Positions 23,147 to 64,000 of a DNA stretch of 64,000 nt are shown here, one piece after another (the stretch's first letter is position 1; each line of letters opens with the position of its first letter). Under the pieces are notes generated by a model. That model did no database searches. It was not told the DNA's origin and saw only the letters and a program-made list of their open reading frames with translations. The position numbers and the translations under genes are program-made. The stretch covers positions 143,930-207,929 of the IMG/VR virus record IMGVR_UViG_3300031998_000008. The stretch is one strand, 5' to 3'. Source of the DNA: a virus (lineage: Duplodnaviria > Caudoviricetes).

Positions 23147-23217
23147 GGTTCATTGGGCCATCGGTTGGCCAGGCGTCTCTAAAACGCTAAAGAAGGGTTC
23201 GACTCCCTTATGAGCCG
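23147..23217 (+). tRNA. Amber suppressor tRNA, anticodon CTA
   Basis: Acceptor GGTTCAT/ATGAGCC, D stem GGCC/GGCC, anticodon GGCGT-CTCTAAA-ACGCT, T arm AAGGG-TTCGACT-CCCTT. Confidence 0.9.
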
Positions 23218-23247
23218 CTACCAATAAGATTAAACAAATACTATGAA

Positions 23248-25844: not shown

Positions 25845-25887
25845 TTTTGAAAGTTTGGCACGATATTTGATAAGTTTCATCACAAAT

Positions 25888-27023: not shown

Positions 27024-27075
27024 CAAAAAAGTTTGGCACGATTTTTGATATAGTGCTTATGTTCTTTGAAATTAT

Positions 27076-27965: not shown

Positions 27966-28015
27966 CAAAACTTGGCACGGTTTTTGATAATGTGCAAACG
28001 TTCTTTGAAAAACAT

Positions 28016-50884: not shown

Positions 50885-51350
50885 TATATTTCATTTTCAC
50901 ATAAATAGTCTAATTTTACACTAAAAAAATATATGGAAAAATTTTTTCGAAAAGTAGTACCTACTGAAAAAAAAGACCCCCCCCTCATGGAAAATCGTTT
51001 TTTTTAGGTGTTATCCGTGGAATTTTTTTTGAATTTTAATTTTAATTGGTCTTACCCTACGTTTGGCCGAAATTTCCGGAAAAAATTTTCACACGCAATT
51101 GTGCGGGCCTATTTGAAAAAAGTGCCGTGGGGGACTCGGTGAGGGGGATAACGCCACCACATAGCCCCCATATAGCCCCCACAAGTATATTTTTTTCTTC
51201 CATATTGTTGCAGTTTGGCACGATTGTTGCAGTGTATTGTAGTGTTCATTCTGTTCTTGATTAAGGAAACAAAAAAAAAGTTTCAAGCCGTGAGCAGTTT
51301 GGCACAATTATTGTAAGAGTAATAGTATAACCAATTAAAATTAAAAAGTC

Positions 51351-51932
51351 ATGGAAACAACCGCAAGAAAGTACAAGAAAGAAACCTTCATTGAATATGC
51401 CAAGCACATTGTAGAAGGATATAAGACAATCATTGCAGCCTACGGAGTAATTTCGAAGGTTGGCTTGACGATGCACGGAAAAGTTTTCAACAAGCGTTTT
51501 GAAAGTGAGATTGAAAAACACTGCAAGGAAGAAGGTATCAATGTTTCTATTTGGGTGAACGACCAATATAATATGGGGTATAAAGATTTGAAGATTTACC
51601 TCCAAGACAGGTCTTTCAATGGCGGCGATTGTTGGATTTACTTCGACAATGACATCTACCACAACAACATTCACAACTGCAACAATGCCTTCGTTGATGG
51701 CGACAATAGAATCATTGGCGTTAAGGTTGCCGAAACTTGCAATGAATATATTGAACTTTGCAAGAAAGACATGACAAAGTGGCAGGATGCGGCAGACAAC
51801 TATGACAAATATGCAGAGCAGGTGACAGCCGCTTTGAAGCAGTTGAATGAAGCCTTTGAAGGTCTTAACTCACTTTTCAAGCCTTACACCATTTCCCAAT
51901 ATGATTGGGAGAATGAAGCGAAGAAAAAATAA
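51351..51932 (+). CDS. hypothetical protein
   Basis: Follows promoter motif and A-rich leader. Confidence 0.8.
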   Translation: METTARKYKKETFIEYAKHIVEGYKTIIAAYGVISKVGLTMHGKVFNKRFESEIEKHCKEEGINVSIWVNDQYNMGYKDLKIYLQDRSFNGGDCWIYFDNDIYHNNIHNCNNAFVDGDNRIIGVKVAETCNEYIELCKKDMTKWQDAADNYDKYAEQVTAALKQLNEAFEGLNSLFKPYTISQYDWENEAKKK

Positions 51933-52073
51933 TATACGCAAATGCGTACTTTGGCACGGAATTTGTAAGTAGTAATATCGAAACAATCAATAACCCAAAA
52001 CACTGACGGAGGCGGTTGGTGTCCACAAACAAAGTGGTTTAATTACCTTGAAGGAAGGATAGCCTAAAACAAC

Positions 52074-52403
52074 ATGGTTAAAATGATTCTCGTTGCTATG
52101 GTTGGAAAACTCGCTCAAACCATTATGAACATGATGGGCGTTCCGAACTCCACTGAAAACACCGAAAAAGCCCTCGCCATTGCCGAATGCGTTGTTTCGG
52201 TTGAAATGGGTGAAAAGAAAACGAAGGCAATCTCAAAACTCTATCGTGACCTCGGCTTGAATGGTTGGCGCAACGAAGCCATGACACACGCCACCATCGA
52301 AGCCTACGAGAATGTCAAAAAGTCAGGCGGTGACGAATTGGCAGTTTTGCTCGAAGTTGAGCGATTGAGAACGGGAGCCGACTTTGTGGGTCTTGAACTC
52401 TAA
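52074..52403 (+). CDS. hypothetical protein
   Basis: Follows promoter motif; terminator after. Confidence 0.75.
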   Translation: MVKMILVAMVGKLAQTIMNMMGVPNSTENTEKALAIAECVVSVEMGEKKTKAISKLYRDLGLNGWRNEAMTHATIEAYENVKKSGGDELAVLLEVERLRTGADFVGLEL

Positions 52404-52528
52404 ACGAACAAGGGAAAAGGGGAAGCAAAAAAAAGTTTCCCCTTTTTTCGTTTTTTGAAAATCCTGGCACAATTATTGCTTATATTGTAGTGAACATTAT
52501 TTATTAACCCAATTAAAAACACAAAACT

Positions 52529-52804
52529 ATGAAAATGAAAGCCACTTTTTTCGTAATGTCAATGACTGAATTTGTTGATGGAGTTGAATACCACAACAAG
52601 CCGACAGCGCACAGCAACGAACAAGAAGCCGAAGCAGCCATGAACAAAAAGGCTGATGAATGGATTTCAACATTCAAGGGGATTGATGATTTCAAGCCGA
52701 AAGATGCAAGAACTTGCGACACCATCGAAGTCAAAGATGAAAACGCACCCGACACCTACATCAAGATTTGGATTGACAAGGTGAGTTTGGAAGTTGAAAT
52801 TTAA
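52529..52804 (+). CDS. hypothetical protein
   Basis: Follows promoter motif; terminator after. Confidence 0.75.
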   Translation: MKMKATFFVMSMTEFVDGVEYHNKPTAHSNEQEAEAAMNKKADEWISTFKGIDDFKPKDARTCDTIEVKDENAPDTYIKIWIDKVSLEVEI

Positions 52805-52907
52805 TCAACAAAAAAAAATAATGGCGGTGCTAAAAAAAGTGCCGCCATTTTTCATTTTTGGAATGGTTTTTGTATTCTATTGTAGTGAACACTAAAACAC
52901 AAATGCT

Positions 52908-53195
52908 ATGTTTACGAAGTATCGCAAAAGAAACAATCAAAGACTTCTATTCATTGACAACACAATAATGATTGAAGAGGGCAGTACTATCATTGCCATT
53001 GGCAGAGAGAACAAAATGTTTTCAACTGAAAAGACCATTGCCTTTGACATTGCCACCATTGAGGGAGCAGACAAGAATATGATAAAAAGGTTTGTCAAGA
53101 CCGCATTACTTTACAATAACGATAAACGGATTTTAAATTATAATTTTTTGGAAGAAAAAGAATTAAATTACAAGCCAAAACTTACATTTTCGTGA
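52908..53195 (+). CDS. hypothetical protein
   Basis: Follows variant promoter motif. Confidence 0.7.
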   Translation: MFTKYRKRNNQRLLFIDNTIMIEEGSTIIAIGRENKMFSTEKTIAFDIATIEGADKNMIKRFVKTALLYNNDKRILNYNFLEEKELNYKPKLTFS

Positions 53196-53243
53196 ATTTT
53201 TGGCATGATATTTGTGTATTATTATAGTGAACATTAAAAACGA

Positions 53244-53480
53244 ATGACTATGAACTACGAAGAACTTGTTTCCAAAGTTGGCGAAGAGAACGTACATTGC
53301 TGCAACATTTGTGGCAAACCGCTTGAATGGGACGATAACATTTGGATAAATTCCAATTTTGGAGTTTGTGAAGATTGTTACAACAAAATTCCCCAAAGGA
53401 TTCAAGATAAGATAGAAGAAGAATTGTACGAGGAGGAAGAGGTGAAAAATTATCTTGATTCAGTTGGCGCAATCTATTAG
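53244..53480 (+). CDS. Small zinc-finger-like protein
   Basis: CCNICG..VCEDC; TAG stop. Confidence 0.7.
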   Translation: MTMNYEELVSKVGEENVHCCNICGKPLEWDDNIWINSNFGVCEDCYNKIPQRIQDKIEEELYEEEEVKNYLDSVGAIY

Positions 53481-53530
53481 TTTGGCACGATTATTGATGT
53501 ATATTAAAGTGAACGTAAAAACACAAAACC

Positions 53531-53764
53531 ATGAGTAAATTAGTCAATGGCACTTGCCCCGAAAACGAAAAGCGTTTTGCTATCATTAACCCTACATCAT
53601 ATAATTGTGATGGTAATTGGGCGGTCACTATCTGCGAAAGCAATGAACTTGGCGACCTCGGTCTTGACGATGACGAAATCAAGCAGGTTGAGCAGTTGGA
53701 AGTTGGCGAAAGATGGGCGGAATCTTTTTATGGATTGAACGCACAAATTGTTAGGTTGGGATAG
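53531..53764 (+). CDS. hypothetical protein
   Basis: Follows promoter motif; TAG stop. Confidence 0.7.
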   Translation: MSKLVNGTCPENEKRFAIINPTSYNCDGNWAVTICESNELGDLGLDDDEIKQVEQLEVGERWAESFYGLNAQIVRLG

Positions 53765-53956
53765 CAGTTTGGCACGATTGTTGCTTATTATTTCAGTGAA
53801 CAATTAAATAACAAAAGCAATGGGAGAGTTTATACTTGGTTTTTTAGTTGGATTTATGGCAATGTTCTTGATTGCTTGCAAGATGGATGAACCTACAAAA
53901 TAGTTTTGGCACGATTATTGTAAGTAATATAGTGTAACCAATTAAAATTAAATACC

Positions 53957-54133
53957 ATGAGTAAAGTTTATATGAAGGTCACGCTCAACTTGATTGTTGA
54001 TACTGACATTCCCGAAACGGCAGACATTATGGAAGGTCTTGATTTTGAAGTCACTCCTAATGGTGAGGCTGACGATGACATTGAAGTTTACGATGTGGAA
54101 GTGGAAGATTACGAAGTAACCGATTCAAAATAA
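53957..54133 (+). CDS. hypothetical acidic protein (58 aa)
   Basis: MSKVYMKV...VTDSK read by eye after promoter motif. Confidence 0.65.
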   Translation: MSKVYMKVTLNLIVDTDIPETADIMEGLDFEVTPNGEADDDIEVYDVEVEDYEVTDSK

Positions 54134-54139
54134 AAAGCC

Positions 54140-54334
54140 ATGAGACTTAAAATAATAGAATTGATTTGGTCAGCCATTTTGGTAATTGCTTGCATTTCAA
54201 TTTTGATTTGGCAGATTATCATTAAGTCACCGATTTTCGTAATTGGAATGTTCGCTTTCATGGCAATTATGGCCTTGATTATTCTTGTCCATATCATCAA
54301 AGAAATAAAGGAGGAAAAACATGGGAAACAATAG
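54140..54334 (+). CDS. Small membrane protein
   Basis: Two hydrophobic segments. Confidence 0.65.
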   Translation: MRLKIIELIWSAILVIACISILIWQIIIKSPIFVIGMFAFMAIMALIILVHIIKEIKEEKHGKQ

Positions 54335-54593
54335 CCTTTGGATTGTGAAGTTTGCAAGTGAGAAACGGGAGCAGCCGAATTTCCCCAATTTTACGAATCT
54401 CAATGCAGCCAAAACGTACTGCAATTCAGTCCTTTCCGATTACGGCAAGAAAAAGCATTTGGACGGAGGCGAAATTCTCCACGTTGTAAATGGCGAAATC
54501 ATTTCAAAGGTTGCTGTGGACTACGTTGGATTTGATGAATTGTATTACAGCGATGTTCACATTCTCCATAAAAAAATCCCATACAAAGGATAA
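54321..54593 (+). CDS. hypothetical protein
   Basis: Overlaps previous stop. Confidence 0.65.
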   Translation: MGNNSLWIVKFASEKREQPNFPNFTNLNAAKTYCNSVLSDYGKKKHLDGGEILHVVNGEIISKVAVDYVGFDELYYSDVHILHKKIPYKG

Positions 54594-54668
54594 TATATAC
54601 GCAATTGCGTACTACTTTGGCACGATATTTGATTATAATTAAAGTGAAATCATTAAATAATTAGAATT

Positions 54669-54869
54669 ATGACTTTTGTAGCAGCCATTCAATTAATTTT
54701 ATTGTGCATCCAACTAACGTTCTTGGCAGGAACGATTTACTCAACCACTAAAAAGGGCGAGGAACAAATCAAGAAAGAATTTAAAATGGAAACCCAAAAG
54801 TTCAGAAACATTTGCCTATACGGAAACTTGGGTTGCATGGCAATCATTTTGTTGCTGAATCTTTTCTAA
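54669..54869 (+). CDS. Small membrane protein
   Basis: Follows promoter motif. Confidence 0.65.
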   Translation: MTFVAAIQLILLCIQLTFLAGTIYSTTKKGEEQIKKEFKMETQKFRNICLYGNLGCMAIILLLNLF

Positions 54870-55070
54870 AAGTTTGGCACGATATTTGATAAAGAAACAA
54901 TGACGATGTTATCGGGAATGGTAAGTTCGCCCTATGCGAAGGGAGGTCTTTGGTGAGATTCCAAAGGGTAGCGCTAATCGTCATGCTTGCGCAAGCCCCC
55001 CATGTGTCCCTTGGTCGCAATACAAGGGACACCCTTGGGGAATAGAAAACAACAACAAAAACATAAAACT

Positions 55071-55394
55071 ATGAGAATCAATTTCAACATCAAGCCATAC
55101 TCCGATTTTACGGGAATTGGCACTAAAAAAGAAGCACTTGCACGTCTTGAAAGCCGATGGGGACTTCGTGCGGTTCCTAATTGCTTTTCGACTTATGGAG
55201 ATTTCCAACATCGTGGACTTGACAATGATACCGCTTGGCTCTACACCATTCAAGTGTATAAGCACGGCAAGCATCGCAAATGCAAGAATTATCATGTTTG
55301 GGTCTATCGTGTTCCGATTAAGACTTTGGAAGTTCTTGGAATCAAGATGAGCCAAATGCGCAACGGAATCAAGATTGAAAAACTCAATAAGTAA
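55071..55394 (+). CDS. hypothetical basic protein
   Basis: ATG after A-rich leader at 55071. Confidence 0.65.
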   Translation: MRINFNIKPYSDFTGIGTKKEALARLESRWGLRAVPNCFSTYGDFQHRGLDNDTAWLYTIQVYKHGKHRKCKNYHVWVYRVPIKTLEVLGIKMSQMRNGIKIEKLNK

Positions 55395-56014
55395 ACCATG
55401 TTGTTTGCAGGGGAGGGACAAAAAAGTTTCTCCCCTTGCCCATTTTGGCACGATTCTTGTGTATTATTGTAGTGACAATTAAAATTAAAAGCCATGACAA
55501 AAGCAGAATGTATTTCAAGAGGTTGCCCGATGCTCATCAAAAAGAGAGACAAGGTTACGATGTTGCCTTATTGGGTCTGCGGTGTAACCAACCAAGACGT
55601 TAAGAAAGTCCATAACTGCGTAAACAAGCCACATTAAACCATGAACAAAGAAAGATTTATTGAAATTCTATCCAAGCCGATGAGCGAGGTAATGAATGAC
55701 CCAACTATCTCCGATGAAGAGTTTTCATTTTGCATGGAAAACTGCGAAAAAAATATTGACGAAATCGAATTTGACGAATAGTTTGGCATAGATTTTGATT
55801 ATTATTTTAGTGAACATTAAAACAAAACAACATGGGAACAAAGACTTACAAAGTAAACCGAAAAAAGGCAATCGAACTTGCCATGAATCATAACAATGTG
55901 ACAAGGGAGGTTGCTGAACGTTACACCGATAGCGAACTGAAGGAAGTGCTTGCTCATCTTTCGGGCAGATTCTTTAAGATGGAAGCCGATTTCTAACCAT
56001 TAAAACAATTAGCC

Positions 56015-56320
56015 ATGCAATTCAGCGAATTAAGAGAAAACATCATCACCAATCTTTGCACCGACATCATCAATAAGCAATTAGCGGCAATGTTAGCCAT
56101 GAATATTGACATGGAAACTTCGTTTGAAGAAAGCAAGGAGGAAATTGTAATCTTTACCAATTCCCATGTTGGATTTATCGGTGTTTCTTTCATTGAAGGA
56201 AATCTGCGCTTCATCAAAGGCGATGGTACAACCGTGTTGGCAAAAGATTATATTTCAAACGAATATTATTACGAAACCGTACTTCAAATTTGGTATGCTT
56301 TTCGGCACGATAGCAAATAG
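56015..56320 (+). CDS. hypothetical protein
   Basis: 101 aa; TAG stop. Confidence 0.7.
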   Translation: MQFSELRENIITNLCTDIINKQLAAMLAMNIDMETSFEESKEEIVIFTNSHVGFIGVSFIEGNLRFIKGDGTTVLAKDYISNEYYYETVLQIWYAFRHDSK

Positions 56321-56370
56321 TTTGGCATGATTATTGCTATAATTGAAGTGTAACAATTAAAATTATAATT

Positions 56371-56592
56371 ATGGCTACACAATCCGACATTGCGCTGATT
56401 AGTTCTAATCCATTTGTCATTAAAAAGGAGCATGGAACGAGACCTTCATATTTGAAGTCATTGCCGAATCATTTTACCGATGACATTTCGGAAGCGAGAA
56501 AGTTTGCGACTGAAACGGCAGCAAAGAACAATATGCTCAAAATCACAACCTATTCACTGAATCCAAACCATTATTCAATCATTAGGCTATGA
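56371..56592 (+). CDS. hypothetical protein
   Basis: Follows promoter motif. Confidence 0.65.
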   Translation: MATQSDIALISSNPFVIKKEHGTRPSYLKSLPNHFTDDISEARKFATETAAKNNMLKITTYSLNPNHYSIIRL

Positions 56593-56783
56593 GCAAAGAA
56601 AGAGACTTTAAGGGTGAACTGAAAGCCCTTCTTGAAGATGTTGCAAAAAGCGGATGGGAGGCAGCAATCCCCTCATTGATTGCAGAGTGCTTGAAAGACG
56701 GAAAGTTTGAAAATATCTCAAATTGGGATTTGTTGGACTGCACGGCTTATCAATGCCATAAGTATAAAAAGCAAATAAAATAA
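56589..56783 (+). CDS. hypothetical protein
   Basis: ATGA overlap. Confidence 0.65.
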   Translation: MSKERDFKGELKALLEDVAKSGWEAAIPSLIAECLKDGKFENISNWDLLDCTAYQCHKYKKQIK

Positions 56784-57194
56784 GTGTTCATATCTTTTGT
56801 GTTTTTGGCCGGAAATTTCTTGTAAGTTTCCGACTTTTTTTTATTACTTTGGCATGGTTTTTGTGTATTATTGTAGTGTATATTAAAACGAATCACCATG
56901 AACGACACACAAAAGATTGAAGCAATCAAAAAAGAGATTGAAAGCACTCACTTGAATACATTGGAGGATATGGGCGAAATGCTTGATAGCATCATCCGTA
57001 TTGTCTATGGAGTTGAAAAGACAAAACCATTATTTGAAAAGAAAGGGATTTGATTATGGAAATTTTATGTGCTTTTTTGCTTTTGTGTGTTATTGCAATG
57101 ACAATTACCTGCATTTATGTATCAAACAAAAGTCAAAAGGAAAATGATGAATTGAGGAAAGAACTCAATGAATTAAAATCTCAAATAGATAGTT

Positions 57195-57473
57195 ATGGTA
57201 ACGATAGATAGTTTGTTTCACTTGGTAAAGCATTATCATTTGGACGATGATGAAAATTGCTTTGACAAGGCGATAGAAATGGCAAGCAACCAACTTTCCG
57301 ATGTGTTGGAAAAGGAAAGGGAATATCCACCATTTATTTACTATTTGTGCTTGGAGCAAATGGAGAAGAATCCAAAGTACAAGTTTGGCAAAACATTTCA
57401 TTCAATGAATGATGAAGAAAAAACTTGTGTATTCAATGAAACAATTTCAGCATTGAAAGCACTTTTGGCATAG
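57195..57473 (+). CDS. hypothetical protein
   Basis: 92 aa; TAG stop. Confidence 0.65.
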   Translation: MVTIDSLFHLVKHYHLDDDENCFDKAIEMASNQLSDVLEKEREYPPFIYYLCLEQMEKNPKYKFGKTFHSMNDEEKTCVFNETISALKALLA

Positions 57474-57530
57474 TTTTTGATTATAATTTGAGTACAAACA
57501 AACACATTATTAACTTAAATCTAAATTACA

Positions 57531-58040
57531 ATGAAGAAAATCTTTTTTGCTATCGCCATTATTTTTGCCACTACACTTGTTGGCTTCGCACAATCAACGG
57601 CTATCCATTTTGATAATGGAAAATATGACATGATGCTTCACCCGAAAAACCCAACGGGTCAAAACATCGAAGTTGTCACTTTCATTGGCTATGATGCAAT
57701 TTCGCAAACTCGTTCAACGAAGAAAATCGAAGTTGATTACGAAGTTATTGATGGCGTTCAATATGCTTTGGAGAACTCAAAAAGAATGAAAAAGTTTGCT
57801 ACTACTGAACTAATAGGTCTTGGCGTTTGCCTTGCAGGTGGAGAACTAATGCACTATTCATACAAACAATTTGGCAAGCACCCGAATGACCATTATAAAA
57901 ATTTAGCCTATGTTGGAGGTGCGGTTGCTATGGCAGGTGCTTTGACTTGTATTTTAGGCTATATTCCGCTATTGAATGACCATGTTTATGTTACAAACAA
58001 TGGGATTGGAATACGATACAAGATTAAAAGTTTGAATTGA
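57531..58040 (+). CDS. Secreted/membrane protein
   Basis: MKKIFF..GFAQ signal peptide; two C-terminal hydrophobic segments. Confidence 0.75.
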   Translation: MKKIFFAIAIIFATTLVGFAQSTAIHFDNGKYDMMLHPKNPTGQNIEVVTFIGYDAISQTRSTKKIEVDYEVIDGVQYALENSKRMKKFATTELIGLGVCLAGGELMHYSYKQFGKHPNDHYKNLAYVGGAVAMAGALTCILGYIPLLNDHVYVTNNGIGIRYKIKSLN

Positions 58041-58151
58041 CCCCATGCGAGAATGTAAATATTTGTAAAAAAGTCACTTTTCGGAGTGGCTTTTTTCATT
58101 TTTGGCATGGTATTTGTATTATATTGAAGTGAACACTAAACACAAAAGACT

Positions 58152-58457
58152 ATGGCTAATAACATTGAAAATTACCAAAAGTGCCAATGCGGTGCAATAA
58201 CTTTCTACTTTGAAGATGGAAGTTCAAGCAGTATGCGCCAACGCACTGCAAAGAAGATGGGAATTGATTTGAGGCACTATAAGAGCCTTAGACCAACTTG
58301 GAATTGCAATCATTGTGTTAATCATTGGGGAACTGACATCTGCGAATGTGGCAGTGGTGAAAAGGTTGGAAAATGTTCTTGCGGCTCCAATAGACCAATG
58401 CAAGAGTTTGGCATAAATTTTGATTCATTTAGCCGTATAATTCAAAACTTTTGCTAA
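58152..58457 (+). CDS. Cys-rich zinc-binding protein
   Basis: CQCG, CNHCVNH, CECGSG, CSCG. Confidence 0.75.
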   Translation: MANNIENYQKCQCGAITFYFEDGSSSSMRQRTAKKMGIDLRHYKSLRPTWNCNHCVNHWGTDICECGSGEKVGKCSCGSNRPMQEFGINFDSFSRIIQNFC

Positions 58458-58458
58458 C

Positions 58459-58869
58459 ATGGAATTGAACGAGATAAGGAATAAAATGGCTCAACTTTTG
58501 GAAGAGCATAAAGCCCTTGAAGAAGAGTTGAAGAACGCTATGGTGGCTATCATCAATGAGACAGCAGAAGAAAGCCCGAATAAGAAAAAGAGAATAGCCA
58601 AGCATATTTTTATTCTTAATGCTTCTGACATCATGGGTAATCCGTGGAATGTAGAGTTTTACGATTGGGAGGCTTCTGCAAAGGTTGTCTTGGATTATCT
58701 TGAATTGAAACCTATCTACGATTGGAAAGCATTGTTGGAAAAGAAGTTAGAAGAAGCCAAACGTAATGTGGTAGAGTTTAAGAAAATATCATCTTGCATG
58801 GGTTACAAAACTACCTATGTAATTCCAATTAGCAAAGAATTTGTTGAAAAAATTGTAGCCAAAATGTAA
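58459..58869 (+). CDS. hypothetical protein
   Basis: 136 aa. Confidence 0.7.
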   Translation: MELNEIRNKMAQLLEEHKALEEELKNAMVAIINETAEESPNKKKRIAKHIFILNASDIMGNPWNVEFYDWEASAKVVLDYLELKPIYDWKALLEKKLEEAKRNVVEFKKISSCMGYKTTYVIPISKEFVEKIVAKM

Positions 58870-58923
58870 TGTTTTGGCACGATTATTGTTTATTATTATA
58901 GTGTAATCTAAAAACGCAAAAAA

Positions 58924-59259
58924 ATGATACACGCAACTTTTAAAACGATTGATGATATAATCAATAATTTTAATTTGGTTGGTGGAATGAGTTTGTCGTT
59001 TGGTGATAACAGCAAATTTTCCACTTCCCATTTTGACATCAATGCAAATAATGATTCAATTCCATTTAAGGAGGGTTGGATTAAAAACATTAGTCTTTAC
59101 TATGCGGAGAACGAGGAAACGGGTAAAACTGAACTGCGAACTGACATCAAAATTGAACTTAAACTATATTGTTCTTGTGCTGAAAGACCTACAATGATAG
59201 TCAATAAATCTTGGTTTGATAAAAATGTATCAAACATTAGTGTTTGGGGCATCAAATGA
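58924..59259 (+). CDS. hypothetical protein
   Basis: Follows promoter motif. Confidence 0.7.
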   Translation: MIHATFKTIDDIINNFNLVGGMSLSFGDNSKFSTSHFDINANNDSIPFKEGWIKNISLYYAENEETGKTELRTDIKIELKLYCSCAERPTMIVNKSWFDKNVSNISVWGIK

Positions 59260-59316
59260 TTTATTTTGGCATGATTTTTGTGTATTATTTTCAACGTAAA
59301 TTAAAACCAAAATACA

Positions 59317-59628
59317 ATGAGCAAAGTAAGAGAATTAGAAGATAATGTTTCGCAAGACAATTTGTTTACCATTGGTAAGCAACTTATTCAGTGTATTGGG
59401 TTTATGGATTGGTGCTATTGTCAATACAACACCGATAAAAGAACAACCGAGGATTTAGTCCTGCACAATGAAAATGCAAGGTACGATAGTCCCGATAGAT
59501 GGTGGAGGTATCGCTTTTTCCGCCTTTGCCGACTGCCTTTCAAGGTCAAATACAAGTGGGTTGGCTATGACCACGTTTTCAAAGTAAGACCCGAAATTTG
59601 GATTAGGCTTTATCACATCAAAGACTGA
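59317..59628 (+). CDS. hypothetical protein
   Basis: Follows promoter motif. Confidence 0.7.
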   Translation: MSKVRELEDNVSQDNLFTIGKQLIQCIGFMDWCYCQYNTDKRTTEDLVLHNENARYDSPDRWWRYRFFRLCRLPFKVKYKWVGYDHVFKVRPEIWIRLYHIKD

Positions 59629-59679
59629 TTTGGCACGATTCTTGTAGTATATTGTAGTGACAATTAAAATTAAAATACC

Positions 59680-59886
59680 ATGAAAGGAATAGACATTATT
59701 AATTATATCAAAGAGAACAACCTTGAAGATGCAGAGGTAAGTGTGACCGCTACAATCTACCGACAAGGCGACCACGATTGCAGAACAACAACAAATGTTT
59801 CCGTTATGGAATCGTCAGTCTATGACGATGAACAAAGGAAATATGTTCCTGCCATTGATTTCTATGTGGATGATGAATTGTATTGA
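59680..59886 (+). CDS. hypothetical protein
   Basis: Follows promoter motif. Confidence 0.7.
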   Translation: MKGIDIINYIKENNLEDAEVSVTATIYRQGDHDCRTTTNVSVMESSVYDDEQRKYVPAIDFYVDDELY

Positions 59887-59938
59887 GTTTGGCACAAAAT
59901 TTGTAGTAATTGAAGTGTAACCTTAAAAACATCGAACT

Positions 59939-60211
59939 ATGAAAAAGACAGCAAGGATTTCAAGAATCAACGCAATGTTGGATAGTCATTTCAAGTCCAA
60001 TCATGGCGCATGGTGGGTTTCCAACAGCAACGGCTATAAGGAAATGATTGAATTGCACCGAGGTCAAGGTGGCGACAAAATCAATCCCGTTTGGATAGCC
60101 AAATACATTTTCCGCCACGAAGCAAGTGTAAACATCATTCACTTTGCAGGTTGTTGCATGGTCTATACGAGAGAGAGCGTAAAACTTTACGATAGAGCCG
60201 TGAAAAAGTAA
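59939..60211 (+). CDS. hypothetical protein
   Basis: Follows promoter motif. Confidence 0.7.
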   Translation: MKKTARISRINAMLDSHFKSNHGAWWVSNSNGYKEMIELHRGQGGDKINPVWIAKYIFRHEASVNIIHFAGCCMVYTRESVKLYDRAVKK

Positions 60212-60264
60212 AAATTGGCACGATTTTTGATTATAATTGTAGTGTAACCTAAAAACATCGAACT

Positions 60265-60690
60265 ATGAGAAACGAAGTCGTAACCATCCAAGTCCCTAAT
60301 GTTGGAACTATCAACGTTTCCTCCACAATGAGAGGCGAATGTAAGGGAACTAAAATGTTTGACCTGCGCCACTACGTTTATAGGCTGCGCATTTGGAGCG
60401 AACACGATAAAATGACCTGCAATTTCCATGACTGCGCCTTCAATTATCCGAGAGTTAAGAAACTCAATAGGGAGGCTTTGCTCAACGCTTTAGATTGTGT
60501 TTTGTCCGATATTTCCATGTATCTTAACGATGAAATCAAATGGAATTATGACGATGAGGATGCAGCCCTTATGAGAATTGCCGAAAAGGGATGCAAGCGT
60601 GAATCCGAGGCATTTTCAAAAGTCGTTGGCGGTGACGATAATCTTTGGACTGCCATAGAATTTTTGACAGATTACATCAACAACCATTGA
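60265..60690 (+). CDS. hypothetical protein
   Basis: Follows promoter motif. Confidence 0.75.
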   Translation: MRNEVVTIQVPNVGTINVSSTMRGECKGTKMFDLRHYVYRLRIWSEHDKMTCNFHDCAFNYPRVKKLNREALLNALDCVLSDISMYLNDEIKWNYDDEDAALMRIAEKGCKRESEAFSKVVGGDDNLWTAIEFLTDYINNH

Positions 60691-61223
60691 TTTTGGCATA
60701 GTTTTTGTTTATATTTGTAGTGTAAATAAAACTCAAAATTATAGATGAAAAAGAAAAATTAAACGCAATTAGAACTGAAATAGACAAGTGGTTTTCCGAT
60801 GAAGAAAAGTCAGCAGTTGACACCTTGAAAAGAATCTCCAACATTCTCAAAAGGAATGATTTCGATATGGATGAATACTGCGAACAACTTCACGATTCAG
60901 TAAATGTGTAACAATGAAAAAAGAAGAAATCATCAAAATGGCTAAAAGCCTTGCGGAGCGTCATTTGATTGACCCCTATATCCCCGATGTGCTAACTGAT
61001 GGCTCAACGTATGCGGAGGAATTTCTTGCAAAGTTGTCAGTAGCCGAAACCGAAGATGGATTGCTGAAAAGAATCCAAGAGGTAATGAGTTAGAGAATTA
61101 TCATAGTCGAGTTTTTAATATGCGGTTGGGTGTGGAAACTTTCTCCTTTCAATTCCACACCCACGCTGTAAGGTTTGGCACGATTATTGCTTATATTGTA
61201 GTGAACAATTAAAATTAAATACT

Positions 61224-61463
61224 ATGGGTTGGGTAAAAAAAGAAACCATTAAAGATGAAAAACTTTTGAAAGAATTAAAAGAAGTTTTTCCCGACAAATT
61301 TTCCATTTTAAGAGGTGTTACAAGAAGTTGCAGCAGTTCAGTCTATGAGTATCTTACGGACTATATTCGTGACTATTACGATGTAACGTTGGCTCAATGT
61401 GACCGAGTTTCCAAGCGGATTGCTCAACATTACGAAATCAAGCAGTTTTACCATAAACACTAA
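61224..61463 (+). CDS. hypothetical protein
   Basis: Follows promoter motif. Confidence 0.7.
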   Translation: MGWVKKETIKDEKLLKELKEVFPDKFSILRGVTRSCSSSVYEYLTDYIRDYYDVTLAQCDRVSKRIAQHYEIKQFYHKH

Positions 61464-61648
61464 AAAAACGGCTGTAAGTATTCCTATCAAATAAATGAAA
61501 AAGCGGTGCAACAATGTACCGCTTTTTTTGTGCATAAGATTCACAACAATACACCACAATATCCGTGCCAAAGTGGTGAAAATCTTGAAAAAAGTTTGGC
61601 ATGGTTTTTGATGTATATTGTAATGCAAACCAATTAAAATTATAATCC

Positions 61649-61912
61649 ATGAGCAAAACCACCGATGAACTTATCCAAGATAGGATAGACAGCGCAAATA
61701 AAGATTTTAGAGAAAACGAAACAAGCATGATTGCCGAAATCTACGACCTTCAAACAATGGTAGTTTGTATTGTAATTGAATGGGGAGATTGGAAGCATGA
61801 GCATGGCTATGCTGATTATATCATGGAACAGCATGGATTCAAGAAATTAAAGGAAGATGTGACGGAGGAAGATGGAAGCGATTGTTATTCCTCAATTCAT
61901 TATTATAAATGA
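61649..61912 (+). CDS. hypothetical protein
   Basis: WGDWKHEH..EEDGSDCYS. Confidence 0.75.
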   Translation: MSKTTDELIQDRIDSANKDFRENETSMIAEIYDLQTMVVCIVIEWGDWKHEHGYADYIMEQHGFKKLKEDVTEEDGSDCYSSIHYYK

Positions 61913-61967
61913 AAAGTTTGGCATAATTTTTGATATAATAATAGAGTAATCAATTAAAATTAAAGAT

Positions 61968-62327
61968 ATGAAAAACTTTATTCAAAATGAACTTGTTTGC
62001 CTTCGTGCGTTAGAGCCGATTGGCTGCGATAGATACGAGGAACTTTCAAAGGCTATTCAATGGCTTGACGAAAACACCTTGAAAGAGGGAGAGAAAAAAG
62101 AAGAGGTTAATAAGCCCCAATACGCCCATACTACAATCCGTTGGAAAGATGACAATAGCGAAGAGGAAACCATCATTGCCATTGGTTGCCCTTACATTGA
62201 AAAGTACGATGAGCAAATTCTTTTCTACTGCGAAAACCAAGAAGATTTTGAAAACTTGAAGCACTACGAAAACGGACAAGATTTCTACATTGATGGCTGC
62301 ACCATGTTCACTGAAACATTGGATTAG
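61968..62327 (+). CDS. hypothetical acidic protein
   Basis: Follows promoter motif; TAG stop. Confidence 0.75.
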   Translation: MKNFIQNELVCLRALEPIGCDRYEELSKAIQWLDENTLKEGEKKEEVNKPQYAHTTIRWKDDNSEEETIIAIGCPYIEKYDEQILFYCENQEDFENLKHYENGQDFYIDGCTMFTETLD

Positions 62328-62379
62328 TTTGGCACGAAATTTGATGTAGTAAGAGAGTAACCAATTAAAATTAAAAACT

Positions 62380-62829
62380 ATGACTATTGAACTTCAAAAT
62401 CAATTAAAGCCTTTTGAGATTTTCATGGAAAAAATGGAAGTCATTGTTGAGGCTATTAAGAATAATGAAGAGAATATCAAGAATGGTTGGGGAGTTGAAA
62501 GATTTGATTTGAGAGACGATGCAATCGGCATGGTTGGTAGTATTCCAACAACGATTAAAGAATATGCTGAACTTTGGGATTATGTTCAAGAAAGATACAA
62601 AGAATATCTTGCAGGTTGCGAAAATCCGCTTATGCCAAATGAAATGTTCTTTGATGTCTATTGGAATGACCCCGAAGCAAATAGGGCAGAATACGATGAT
62701 TTGACCCTTTGGGTTTTCTTTGACTACGAATATGGCATCTACTATTTGGAAGATGATGAAATCTTGGAAAAGATTAAAAAGAGAGACGAAGAATTAGCAA
62801 AGGCTGAAAATGCCACAAGAGGCTACTAA
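62380..62829 (+). CDS. hypothetical acidic protein
   Basis: Follows promoter motif. Confidence 0.75.
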   Translation: MTIELQNQLKPFEIFMEKMEVIVEAIKNNEENIKNGWGVERFDLRDDAIGMVGSIPTTIKEYAELWDYVQERYKEYLAGCENPLMPNEMFFDVYWNDPEANRAEYDDLTLWVFFDYEYGIYYLEDDEILEKIKKRDEELAKAENATRGY

Positions 62830-62903
62830 TATATACGCAAATGCGTACTGATTTGGCACGATATTTGTAAGATAGTAAGCATAACAAATTAAAATTAAAA
62901 TCC

Positions 62904-63332
62904 ATGAATCAATCCGAGTACAATAGAATTAACGAAGGCAACGTTCTCATTAGTGGTATTATGAGAGATATTCACAGCATGGAGGGCAAGTTGCGCAATA
63001 AGATGGAAACATCTATTTTCGACATGGTTACTGCTATGGGCGGTAGGCTTGAAGTTGATGTTGACAATGACGATATTCCTATCGTAACTTACGATGGCGG
63101 CAGACACCCCGAATATAACGCCACGCCTTGCGCCCAAGTCCAAGTTATTGAGCCATTGGAAAAGAACGGCTTCAAACGTTTTCGTGTGGACATGGACGTT
63201 TGCGAAGAGTACGAATCGGATAGATTTGACATTGAATCAGTCGAAGTCATTTTTGACTATGTTTATTGGAAGTTTGACGATTACTGCGAACAATTAGGTC
63301 TTGCTGTGGAAGTTATCAAAGAGTTTACCTAA
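62904..63332 (+). CDS. hypothetical acidic protein
   Basis: Follows promoter motif. Confidence 0.75.
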   Translation: MNQSEYNRINEGNVLISGIMRDIHSMEGKLRNKMETSIFDMVTAMGGRLEVDVDNDDIPIVTYDGGRHPEYNATPCAQVQVIEPLEKNGFKRFRVDMDVCEEYESDRFDIESVEVIFDYVYWKFDDYCEQLGLAVEVIKEFT

Positions 63333-63396
63333 TAGACCAACTTTGGCACGATTTTTGTTAGTATTATAGTTGTCTAACCAATTAAAAACACGCACT

Positions 63397-63750
63397 ATGA
63401 ATTACATTACCAATTCAAAAGAAGTCCCCTTCACGCTCAATGACTTTTACAATCACACGCATTTTTCCCTTCGTTCAAGCGGAAACGGCTATAAGATTTG
63501 CCATGTATTGCTCAACGACTACAATACAGACCAACAAGGTATTACTACAATGTCAGTAACGATTTGGGAAAGCCTACGCCAACGTGGAAGGCATACTTTA
63601 ACCATCGAAGAGATTTCAAGCAAAATCAACATGAGGGATTTGCTTATGGAAATTTCGGCAAAGTTAGCCCACAATGAATTTGAAGATGGGGATTGCTACA
63701 TTGAAGTAGATATGCCCACATCAAGCGGAAAAAGAAGTTTCACATTCTAA
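63397..63750 (+). CDS. hypothetical protein
   Basis: ATG at 63397 after promoter motif. Confidence 0.7.
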   Translation: MNYITNSKEVPFTLNDFYNHTHFSLRSSGNGYKICHVLLNDYNTDQQGITTMSVTIWESLRQRGRHTLTIEEISSKINMRDLLMEISAKLAHNEFEDGDCYIEVDMPTSSGKRSFTF

Positions 63751-63802
63751 CATTTTGGCACGATTCTTGTACTAATAGACATAACCATTAAAAATTAAAA
63801 TT

Positions 63803-64000
63803 ATGGAAAAAGCAAAAATCCAAGAAATCAAAGACAAGTTAGGTAAGTTTATCAAAGTTGAGCCTATCCTTTCACCCCGAAGTGGTGAAGCAGTCCGTAA
63901 TCAGTACGAAGTTCGTTTTGAAAACGGCAACCTTTTTCAGTCATTCGATACCTTGATTGGTATTCGGACAGGCGGCAAACTCTATCTTACGAGAAGCCAT
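63803..64000 (+). CDS. hypothetical protein (3' truncated)
   Basis: MEKAKIQE... open to the window end. Confidence 0.65.
   Translation, partial: MEKAKIQEIKDKLGKFIKVEPILSPRSGEAVRNQYEVRFENGNLFQSFDTLIGIRTGGKLYLTRSH

Follow-up and report, generated by a model that had tools for sequence, protein, structure and literature searches.

The window analyzed here, a stretch of 64,000 nt, is the final 64 kb of a 207,929-bp viral contig (IMG/VR record IMGVR_UViG_3300031998_000008, positions 143,930 to 207,929; hereafter G000). It has a G+C content of approximately 33% and contains a large tRNA array together with a long series of small early genes, ahead of which we identified an array of sigma-54-type (RpoN-type) promoters carrying the motif TGGCAY-N5-TTG. 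This array, its resemblance to bacterial sigma-54 promoters, and its possible role in the early transcription of the phage are the subject of the present report. The phage is of the T4 type, and a Gp23 capsid gene was found in G000 and likewise in the relatives compared. A search with a 380-amino-acid (aa) neighboring protein as the query retrieved relatives; the related phages considered here are G001, G002, G049, G051, and G052. No near-identical record of G000 was found in the phage collection searched. The genes of the array are small orphans, and none of the ten largest early proteins could be assigned to a Pfam or PHROG family.

The motif occurs 34 times in the window compared with 1.66 occurrences expected from shuffled sequences (shuffle maximum 6), which represents an enrichment of approximately 20-fold. 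Thirty copies are located on the plus strand between positions 51216 and 63769 ahead of small early genes, three further plus-strand copies lie 18–29 nt 5′ of tRNA genes, and one copy within the array is inverted; only three more were found in the remaining 144 kb of the contig. Outside the window, a solitary copy (G000 100472–100485) stands 34 nt 5′ of a gene for a predicted membrane protein of 85 aa, well within the late/structural region. A weight-matrix scan at a low threshold added only a single, degenerate copy (TGGAAT at 52859), indicating that the motif family is sharply bounded and that the search pattern is not the reason why TGGCA and TTG appear invariant. With this degenerate copy counted, the array has 31 promoters, of which 30 retain TGGCA and all have TTG. 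In approximately 24 cases the ATG of the gene lies 33–39 nt from the G of TTG, or about 50 nt from the first base of the motif, and an unbiased hexamer count of the regions upstream of array genes placed TTGGCA, TTTGGC, and TGGCAC at or near the top (22 of 27 regions).

Each small gene of the array, like some of the tRNA genes, is preceded by a module of approximately 60 nt, composed of TT-TGGCAY-N5-TTG, some 10 nt rich in A+T, an AGTG box, and an A-rich leader of 22–24 nt that lacks a Shine–Dalgarno sequence. Downstream of the motif, three genuine repeat families were recognized: the AT-rich stretch, the box AGTG(A/T)AAC, and the leader AATTAAAA. The AGTG box lies 10–11 nt after TTG (standard deviation 0.3–0.5), and its distance to the ATG is variable, which suggests that it marks the predicted +1 position. 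Information content is concentrated in TGGCA and TTG (1.5–2.6 bits) versus 0.2–0.8 bits in the AGTG and AT-rich parts. In the 12 nt following TTG the AT content reaches 83% in the phage sites versus 60% in bacterial groES promoters, and the AT-rich stretch from −11 to −1 is specific to the phage. A preliminary description of this DNA, made without database searches, had reported about 30 copies at fixed spacing, usually 45–55 nt from an ATG and followed by these downstream elements, with three more in the tRNA array and one inverted, and had proposed a motif search of the upstream regions; the counts given above agree with it on all of these points.

The leader carries an element, TAAC(C)AATTAAAA, located approximately 20 nt 5′ of the ATG in the phage early genes. 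The same element also precedes genes of G001 that are driven by sigmaA promoters, and the leaders of many Bacteroidales groES genes contain it in the form TGTYTAAC-AAAA. A role in translation is possible, as a signal in organisms without Shine–Dalgarno sequences.

All sites described in the following are on the plus strand unless otherwise indicated. The array opens with a tandem pair of predicted promoters, of which the first (51216–51229) is followed by an AGTG box and, 84 nt downstream, by the next motif (51300–51313), which lies 37 nt from the ATG of an open reading frame (ORF) at 51351–51932 (193 aa) and is kept at its homologs in G002 and G049. Before this pair, the segment 51090–51200 is unusually rich in G+C with repeated GGGGG/CCCCC runs (fold z-score −1.8) and is part of a 660-nt non-coding head of the array. 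Motif match and ATG distance together define promoters at 53201–53214 (ORF 53244–53480), 53483–53496 (ORF 53531–53764), 53907–53920 (ORF 53957–54133 and the two next genes), 55784–55797 (ORF 55832–55996), 56323–56336 (ORF 56371–56592), 57466–57479 (ORF 57531–58040), 58875–58888 (ORF 58924–59259), 59631–59644 (ORF 59680–59886), 59890–59903 (ORF 59939–60211), 61176–61189 (ORF 61224–61463), 61597–61610 (ORF 61649–61912), and 63344–63357 (ORF 63397–63750). The match at 53770–53783 precedes a short hydrophobic ORF of about 28 codons, that at 60694–60707 has no clear ORF directly behind it (the next one is at 60914–61093), and the last one (63756–63769) serves an ORF that starts at 63803, where the array continues off the contig end.

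A terminator hairpin adjoins only about six of the 31 modules. Sites directly behind such a hairpin include 52465–52478 (ORF 52529–52804) and the degenerate copy recovered by the weight matrix (52859–52872, ORF 52908–53195); a hairpin also precedes the promoter at 55446–55459, which has the usual ATG distance (ORF 55494–55637), and terminator hairpins precede that at 56850–56863, which serves three genes (ORFs 56898–57473) and is kept at the G049 homologs (87–90% identity), and that at 58103–58116 (ORF 58152–58457). The last of these was also covered by the comparison with G049 homologs, as were the motif matches at 58409–58422 (ORF 58459–58869), which lies within the end of the preceding ORF, and at 60216–60229 (ORF 60265–60690), 61919–61932 (ORF 61968–62327), and 62330–62343 (ORF 62380–62829). 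The inverted copy (61557–61570, minus strand) is followed about 35 nt downstream by a stable hairpin with a U run (61495–61570 in total; fold z-score −3.1), and it may give rise to an antisense small RNA of approximately 50 nt or form part of a bidirectional terminator.

Two promoters have unusually long leaders compared with the usual 22–24 nt, namely 51952–51965 with a leader of 108 nt (51966–52073) before ORF 52074–52403 and 54875–54888 with one of 113 nt (54889–55001) before ORF 55002–55394. Neither leader has an Rfam match or folds better than shuffled sequences, and an unannotated small ORF or RNA is possible in them; no known RNA was matched by Rfam across 50.5–64 kb. A 19-nt element with a perfect 6+6 palindrome, TACGCA-nn-TGCGTA, is located 3–6 nt 5′ of three promoters: at 51932–51950 ahead of the 51952 site, at 54595–54613 ahead of the promoter at 54618–54631 (ORF 54669–54869), and at 62831–62849 ahead of that at 62854–62867 (ORF 62904–63332), the latter two promoters also having the common ATG distance. 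A similar palindrome lies directly 3′ of a promoter in G049 and G052, and the element may represent an operator or an RNA hairpin.

In the tRNA array, the same motif is present at 25856–25869, 18 nt 5′ of tRNA-Asn (25888), at 27034–27047, 28 nt 5′ of tRNA-Pro (27076), and at 27973–27986, 29 nt 5′ of tRNA-Arg (28016). Judged by placement, these sites confine any transcription start to within 18–29 nt of TTG (within 18 nt at tRNA-Asn), and the orientation and register of the array as a whole fit a sigma-54 promoter. Sigma-54 holoenzyme without an activator forms stable inactive closed complexes (PMC11704786). Host sigma-54 holoenzyme might bind the phage sites mainly in this silent form, with the genes transcribed from elsewhere; the array would then act as a sink that withdraws sigma-54 from the host stress regulon, or as roadblocks and insulators between cassettes. 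Neither an activator nor an enhancer was found, and a set of over 30 strong sites could sequester a factor that is scarce. We regard this explanation as quite improbable: all array copies but one face genes, at 33–39 nt from an ATG or 18–29 nt from a tRNA 5′ end, and a sink or roadblock needs neither orientation nor register. Moreover, no other promoter class is seen for these genes, and several sites follow terminator hairpins, so that read-through from upstream would be blocked there.

The two invariant parts of the motif correspond to the GG and G(C) of −24/−12 promoters, and all 30 array sites show TGGCA and TTG at the exact spacing. The flanks also fit the extended sigma-54 consensus, as TGGCA is preceded by T in 29 of 30 sites and followed by G/A and then A/G. 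For comparison with bacterial promoters, a ClpB-like query led us to Bacteroidales genomes, of which 41 were sampled; the RpoN DNA-binding domain is encoded in all 41 of these Bacteroidales-type genomes. Upstream of 28 of the 29 groES genes examined, TTTGGCAY is followed by R, W, W, and T-n-T-G in the same register, 58–78 nt 5′ of the ATG. A weight matrix built from 27 Bacteroidales groES promoters alone, with no phage site in it, scored the phage sites at 13.8–21.7 and the bacterial sites at 13.3–22.4. The same matrix gave 38 plus-strand matches in the G000 contig versus 2.4 in shuffled sequences. By these measures the phage sites are equivalent to Bacteroidales sigma-54 promoters, and the −24/−12 reading put forward in the preliminary description is supported by spacing, flanks, and matrix scores.

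Sigma-54 promoters of this kind have a known place in Bacteroidota. Mapping of transcription start sites in Flavobacterium psychrophilum placed groES, dnaK, lon, clpB, and htpG on sigma-54 promoters (motif SM4; PMC9723704), and a survey from 2025 found the chaperone sigma-54 regulon to be enriched across Bacteroidota (PMC12316311). The phage promoters share with these chaperone and envelope-stress promoters the −24/−12 elements, their spacing, the T-rich 5′ flank, and the frequent lack of the −12 C, which was observed in the groES promoters of 28 Bacteroidales genomes. These bacterial promoters lie 58–78 nt from the ATG, carry upstream TGTCA repeats, and have an AT fraction of 0.60 between −12 and +1. 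The phage promoters differ in their shorter distance to the ATG (33–39 nt), in the lack of TGTCA repeats, in an AT content of 83% in this region, and in standing one per small gene in arrays of at least 30. We also tried the ClpB route to host clpB promoters, and the bacterial matches proved to be ClpC-like genes with sigmaA boxes and were uninformative. One contig binned in an uncultured Bacteroidales genome (CALAVA010000010.1, 34.6 kb) encodes a ClpB-like protein 83% identical to that of the phage, and a second contig of this bin carries four perfect copies of the promoter; these contigs are probably related phage DNA and are weak evidence as to the host.

The psp promoters of enterobacteria are sigma-54 promoters that are induced by phage secretin stress via PspF. 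The accepted sigma-54 sites of pspA and pspG end in TTGT, as phage sites can, and the promoter of ORF 59317–59628 (59267–59280) is identical to the listed Salmonella pspG site over 15 bases (PMC3844500). The psp promoters, unlike those of the phage, drive host genes in Proteobacteria, and both their activator and their enhancer are known; the link from infection stress to a sigma-54 response is shared with the phage as an idea only.

The module is conserved in relatives of G000. Approximately 25 copies of the same module are found at the contig end of G002 (63% identity), 56 copies of the motif in G049 (302 kb), and an array of about 20 in G052 (361 kb, rated 100% complete), and an exact 16-mer was recovered in 67 stretches of viral contigs, several of them jumbo. 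In G052 the downstream box is largely different and the −24/−12 core is retained, with TTGC in 13 of 19 sites, so that what is conserved across lineages is precisely the sigma-54 recognition part. Among homologous gene pairs of G000 and G049, 8 of about 10 keep the motif, while their flanks have diverged. In both G049 and G052, the array ends with a motif copy immediately followed by a gene for a sigma70-family factor (295 and 292 aa, respectively), which suggests a cascade.

The spread of such repeats among small genes recalls the PeSL cassettes of T4-type phages, in which an early promoter and a stem-loop accompany genes of hyperplastic regions (Arbiol et al. 2010, PMC2839356). Like the PeSL cassettes, the array combines a T4-type genome (Gp23) with a variable region in which small orphan genes are each preceded by a strong, conserved early promoter module, some of them after a terminator hairpin, and in which gene content and order are shuffled. 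Unlike the PeSL cassettes, which have a sigma70-like promoter and a stem-loop, the phage modules are of the sigma-54 type with a hairpin at only about 6 of 31. The repeats might be read chiefly as recombination cassettes that shuffle small genes, their sequence reflecting recent spread more than selection for a particular polymerase. Homologs of the 35 early proteins of G000 number one in G002, none in G001, and 16 in G049, where their order is scrambled, and the cassettes share about 60 nt; PeSL elements are known to shuffle genes in this manner in T4-type coliphages (PMC2839356). This reading is compatible with promoter function, as PeSLs are themselves promoters, and recent spread leaves unexplained that the invariant positions are the sigma-54 contacts and that, in four phages, variation falls only in the spacer and in the C of TGGCA. 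As a sufficient account of the array we consider it very improbable.

A different picture was obtained for G001, a complete genome of 295 kb without arrays, in which sigma-54-type matches are only scattered. For each genome we determined how many genes have a sigmaA −7 box within the 60 nt preceding them and compared the counts with shuffled sequences. Such boxes precede 88 of 428 genes (21%) in G001, where 3.8% is expected by chance, versus 11 of 246 in G000 (chance 4.5%), 3 of 123 in G002 (chance 4.3%), and 20 of 429 in G052 (chance 3.6%); they are thus at chance level in the latter three, and only one motif-bearing gene also has one. In the early array of G001 (130–160 kb), 36 of 70 small genes stand behind a textbook TTTG-N20-TACCTTTGCA sigmaA promoter of Bacteroidota, which also identifies Bacteroidota as the host phylum. 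On these counts, the array-bearing phages appear to have no other host-type promoter class. A swap of promoters at orthologous genes of G000 and G001 was not comparable, as the two share no early protein. G001 keeps one near-perfect sigma-54-type site with TTGC (287673–287686, minus strand) before an ORF of about 85 aa.

The geometries of other promoter classes were compared with the array itself. The Bacteroidota sigmaA promoter (−33 TTTG, −7 TAnnTTTG), which the preliminary description had named as the geometry that would speak against sigma-54, does not fit: all 30 sites have G or A in place of its required first T, and no conserved TTTG lies 19–21 nt upstream of the TTG part. An Escherichia coli-type −35/−10 promoter (TTGGCA-N16-18-TATAGT) was likewise rejected, as the −11 position is unconserved, the invariant TTG remains unexplained, and the box is absent in G052.

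T4 middle promoters consist of a MotA box near −30 and a sigma70 −10 element, and they are used together with AsiA. As in those promoters, the module of this T4-type phage has a conserved box and, about 10 nt further downstream, an AT-rich segment resembling a −10 element. It differs in that the phage box equals the sigma-54 −24 element and is coupled to an invariant TTG at sigma-54 spacing, and in that T4 middle promoters need MotA and AsiA, which were not found here: there was no match to PF09114, and the sole match to PF09010 (14.8 bits, in G001) was below threshold and contained stops, although distant analogs could escape such searches.

The module could also be a promoter peculiar to the phage, recognized by a phage factor that works with the host core polymerase, and its likeness to sigma-54 promoters would then be coincidental or vestigial. 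The candidate reader would be a compact sigma70-family protein of 238 aa, perhaps delivered with the DNA, or a MotA-like activator acting on the TTTGGCAY box. The orthologs of the 238-aa protein are close in the array-bearing phages (74, 74, and 61% identity), reach 34% identity in G001, and are absent from G051. In addition, the TTTG at the start of the motif precedes the TA of the AGTG box by 20–21 nt, as in the TTTG-N20-TAnnTTTG geometry of the sigmaA promoters of G001; a TATWAT-like stretch follows TTG, and a sigma70-type scan finds TTGGCA-N16-18-TATAGT at several sites. Against this stands the weak conservation of the AGTG and AT-rich parts, which are largely replaced in G052 while the TTGC core persists, and the conserved core would fall in the spacer of a sigma70-type promoter. 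The tRNA-Asn gene poses a further difficulty, as a −35/−10 reading of its site would start transcription inside the tRNA. The phage sites also agree with independent bacterial sigma-54 promoters in flanking positions that played no part in the search for them. A phage sigma factor would furthermore need a promoter of its own first, and G052 has no sigmaA-type promoters above chance, while the sigma genes of G049 and G052 themselves stand behind the motif. We consider a phage-specific reader unlikely on balance.

We favor instead the interpretation that the host sigma-54 polymerase transcribes the early class of this T4-type jumbo phage, to which we give a probability of roughly 65% from the sequence evidence. 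The preliminary description had left open whether host or phage sigma-54 would be used. This narrows to the host, as the Sigma54 DBD, CBD, and AID domains were not found in G000 or in three relatives rated 99–100% complete. A phage-encoded activator was rejected together with a phage-encoded sigma-54, and the suggested search of the phage genomes for RpoN or for ATPases with a GAFTGA loop found neither.

Sigma-54 requires an ATPase activator; its polymerase binds promoters in a closed, silent state, and ATP-driven remodeling is needed to open them. Several observations weigh against the use of host sigma-54 in this respect and in others. In G000 and the complete relatives, the only matches to the enhancer-binding ATPase domain PF00158 were proteins of the ClpB type (one of them split), and a GAFTGA loop was absent from all six reading frames of G000, G001, and G002; neither an AAA+ activator nor an enhancer was thus found in the phages searched. 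TGTCA repeats lie upstream of 27 of 28 bacterial groES promoters and are likely their enhancer; in the phage array such repeats show no enrichment and do not occur in pairs, and the regions upstream of the sites share no other conserved element. Only 5 of the 30 array sites have the C of −12 TTGC. The 238-aa sigma factor shared by the array-bearing phages could be the reader of the motif, and repeated cassettes within one genome can look conserved by common descent alone. Finally, the G000 contig is only 56% complete according to CheckV.

The missing −12 C had been taken in the preliminary description as a possible relaxation of activator dependence. As a trait particular to the phage, this is not supported: of the 28 bacterial groES sites, 14 carry A at the same position, 8 carry C, and 5 carry T, so that its lack is not phage-specific and is equally common in Bacteroidales groES promoters, and G052 keeps TTGC in most of its sites. 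A strict search for TGGCACG-N4-TTGC in two Bacteroidota genomes returned 0 and 1 sites, which fits the finding that these bacteria seldom keep the full −12 TTGC.

If host sigma-54 is indeed used, pre-existing host sigma-54 holoenzyme would bind the incoming phage DNA and transcribe the early genes and some tRNAs, since the phage apparently makes no sigma-54 of its own. A sigma70-family factor of the phage, made from the early class as in G049 and G052, would then pass transcription on to later classes. Activation is the least certain step. A stress-responsive enhancer-binding ATPase of the host, perhaps that of the chaperone/envelope-stress regulon, might act from solution, which is plausible because a truncated AAA+ domain without enhancer binding activates sigma-54 promoters from solution, approximately tenfold less well (PMC3844500). 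The AT-rich melting region would ease the opening of the phage promoters. An unrecognized phage activator would be an equally possible route. In a wider form, a clade of T4-type jumbo phages of Bacteroidota may have moved its whole early class from the housekeeping sigma factor to host sigma-54, with enhancer-less, easily melted promoters fired by a host ATPase responding to stress or infection or by a phage activator; for this scenario, we see an even chance.

Beta, beta-prime, and T7-type RNA polymerase domains were not found in the phages, with the qualification that the T7-type model was run without a positive control and that very divergent polymerases would be missed. A further motif resembling TTGTTTT-N15-TGTATATTA occurs at G000 46367, 47664, and 52186 (minus strand) and at 190156 (plus strand), and a looser pattern has nine matches versus 3.2 in shuffled sequences; it is possibly the promoter class of the phage's own sigma factor.

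Two other features of these genomes were observed. The ClpB-like gene of G049 (65375–68701) appears to be split, with its C-terminal half (372 aa) as a separate ORF, and is flanked on one side by a 353-aa ORF with weak, sub-cut-off matches of endonuclease type and on the other by a Dam-type methyltransferase gene. A tRNA with the anticodon CTA (window 23147–23218; an amber suppressor, called Pyl by ARAGORN) is encoded in the window, and the G001 homolog of the 238-aa sigma factor (129146–129802) contains one in-frame TAG; together, these hint at TAG read-through in this clade.

To our knowledge, the transcription programmes of phages start on the primary sigma factor of the host or on a polymerase that is made by the phage or carried in the virion. 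We searched the literature for phage early genes on sigma-54 promoters and found none, the matches being concerned with receptors, ribosome modulation proteins, and host regulons. The phage described here combines sigma-54 promoters of the type known from Bacteroidota chaperone regulons with early cassettes of the PeSL type. If true, an early programme on sigma-54 implies that infection triggers a host activator, that a new class of phage activator exists, or that these promoters escape the activator rule. It would also represent a private transcription route that survives the shut-off of sigmaA, and the use of sigmaA by the sister lineage G001 would make the switch recent enough to be traced. 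The contrast with G001 thus offers a natural experiment on a virus swapping its promoter class, and the motif would serve as a signature predicting Bacteroidota hosts of uncultured phages.

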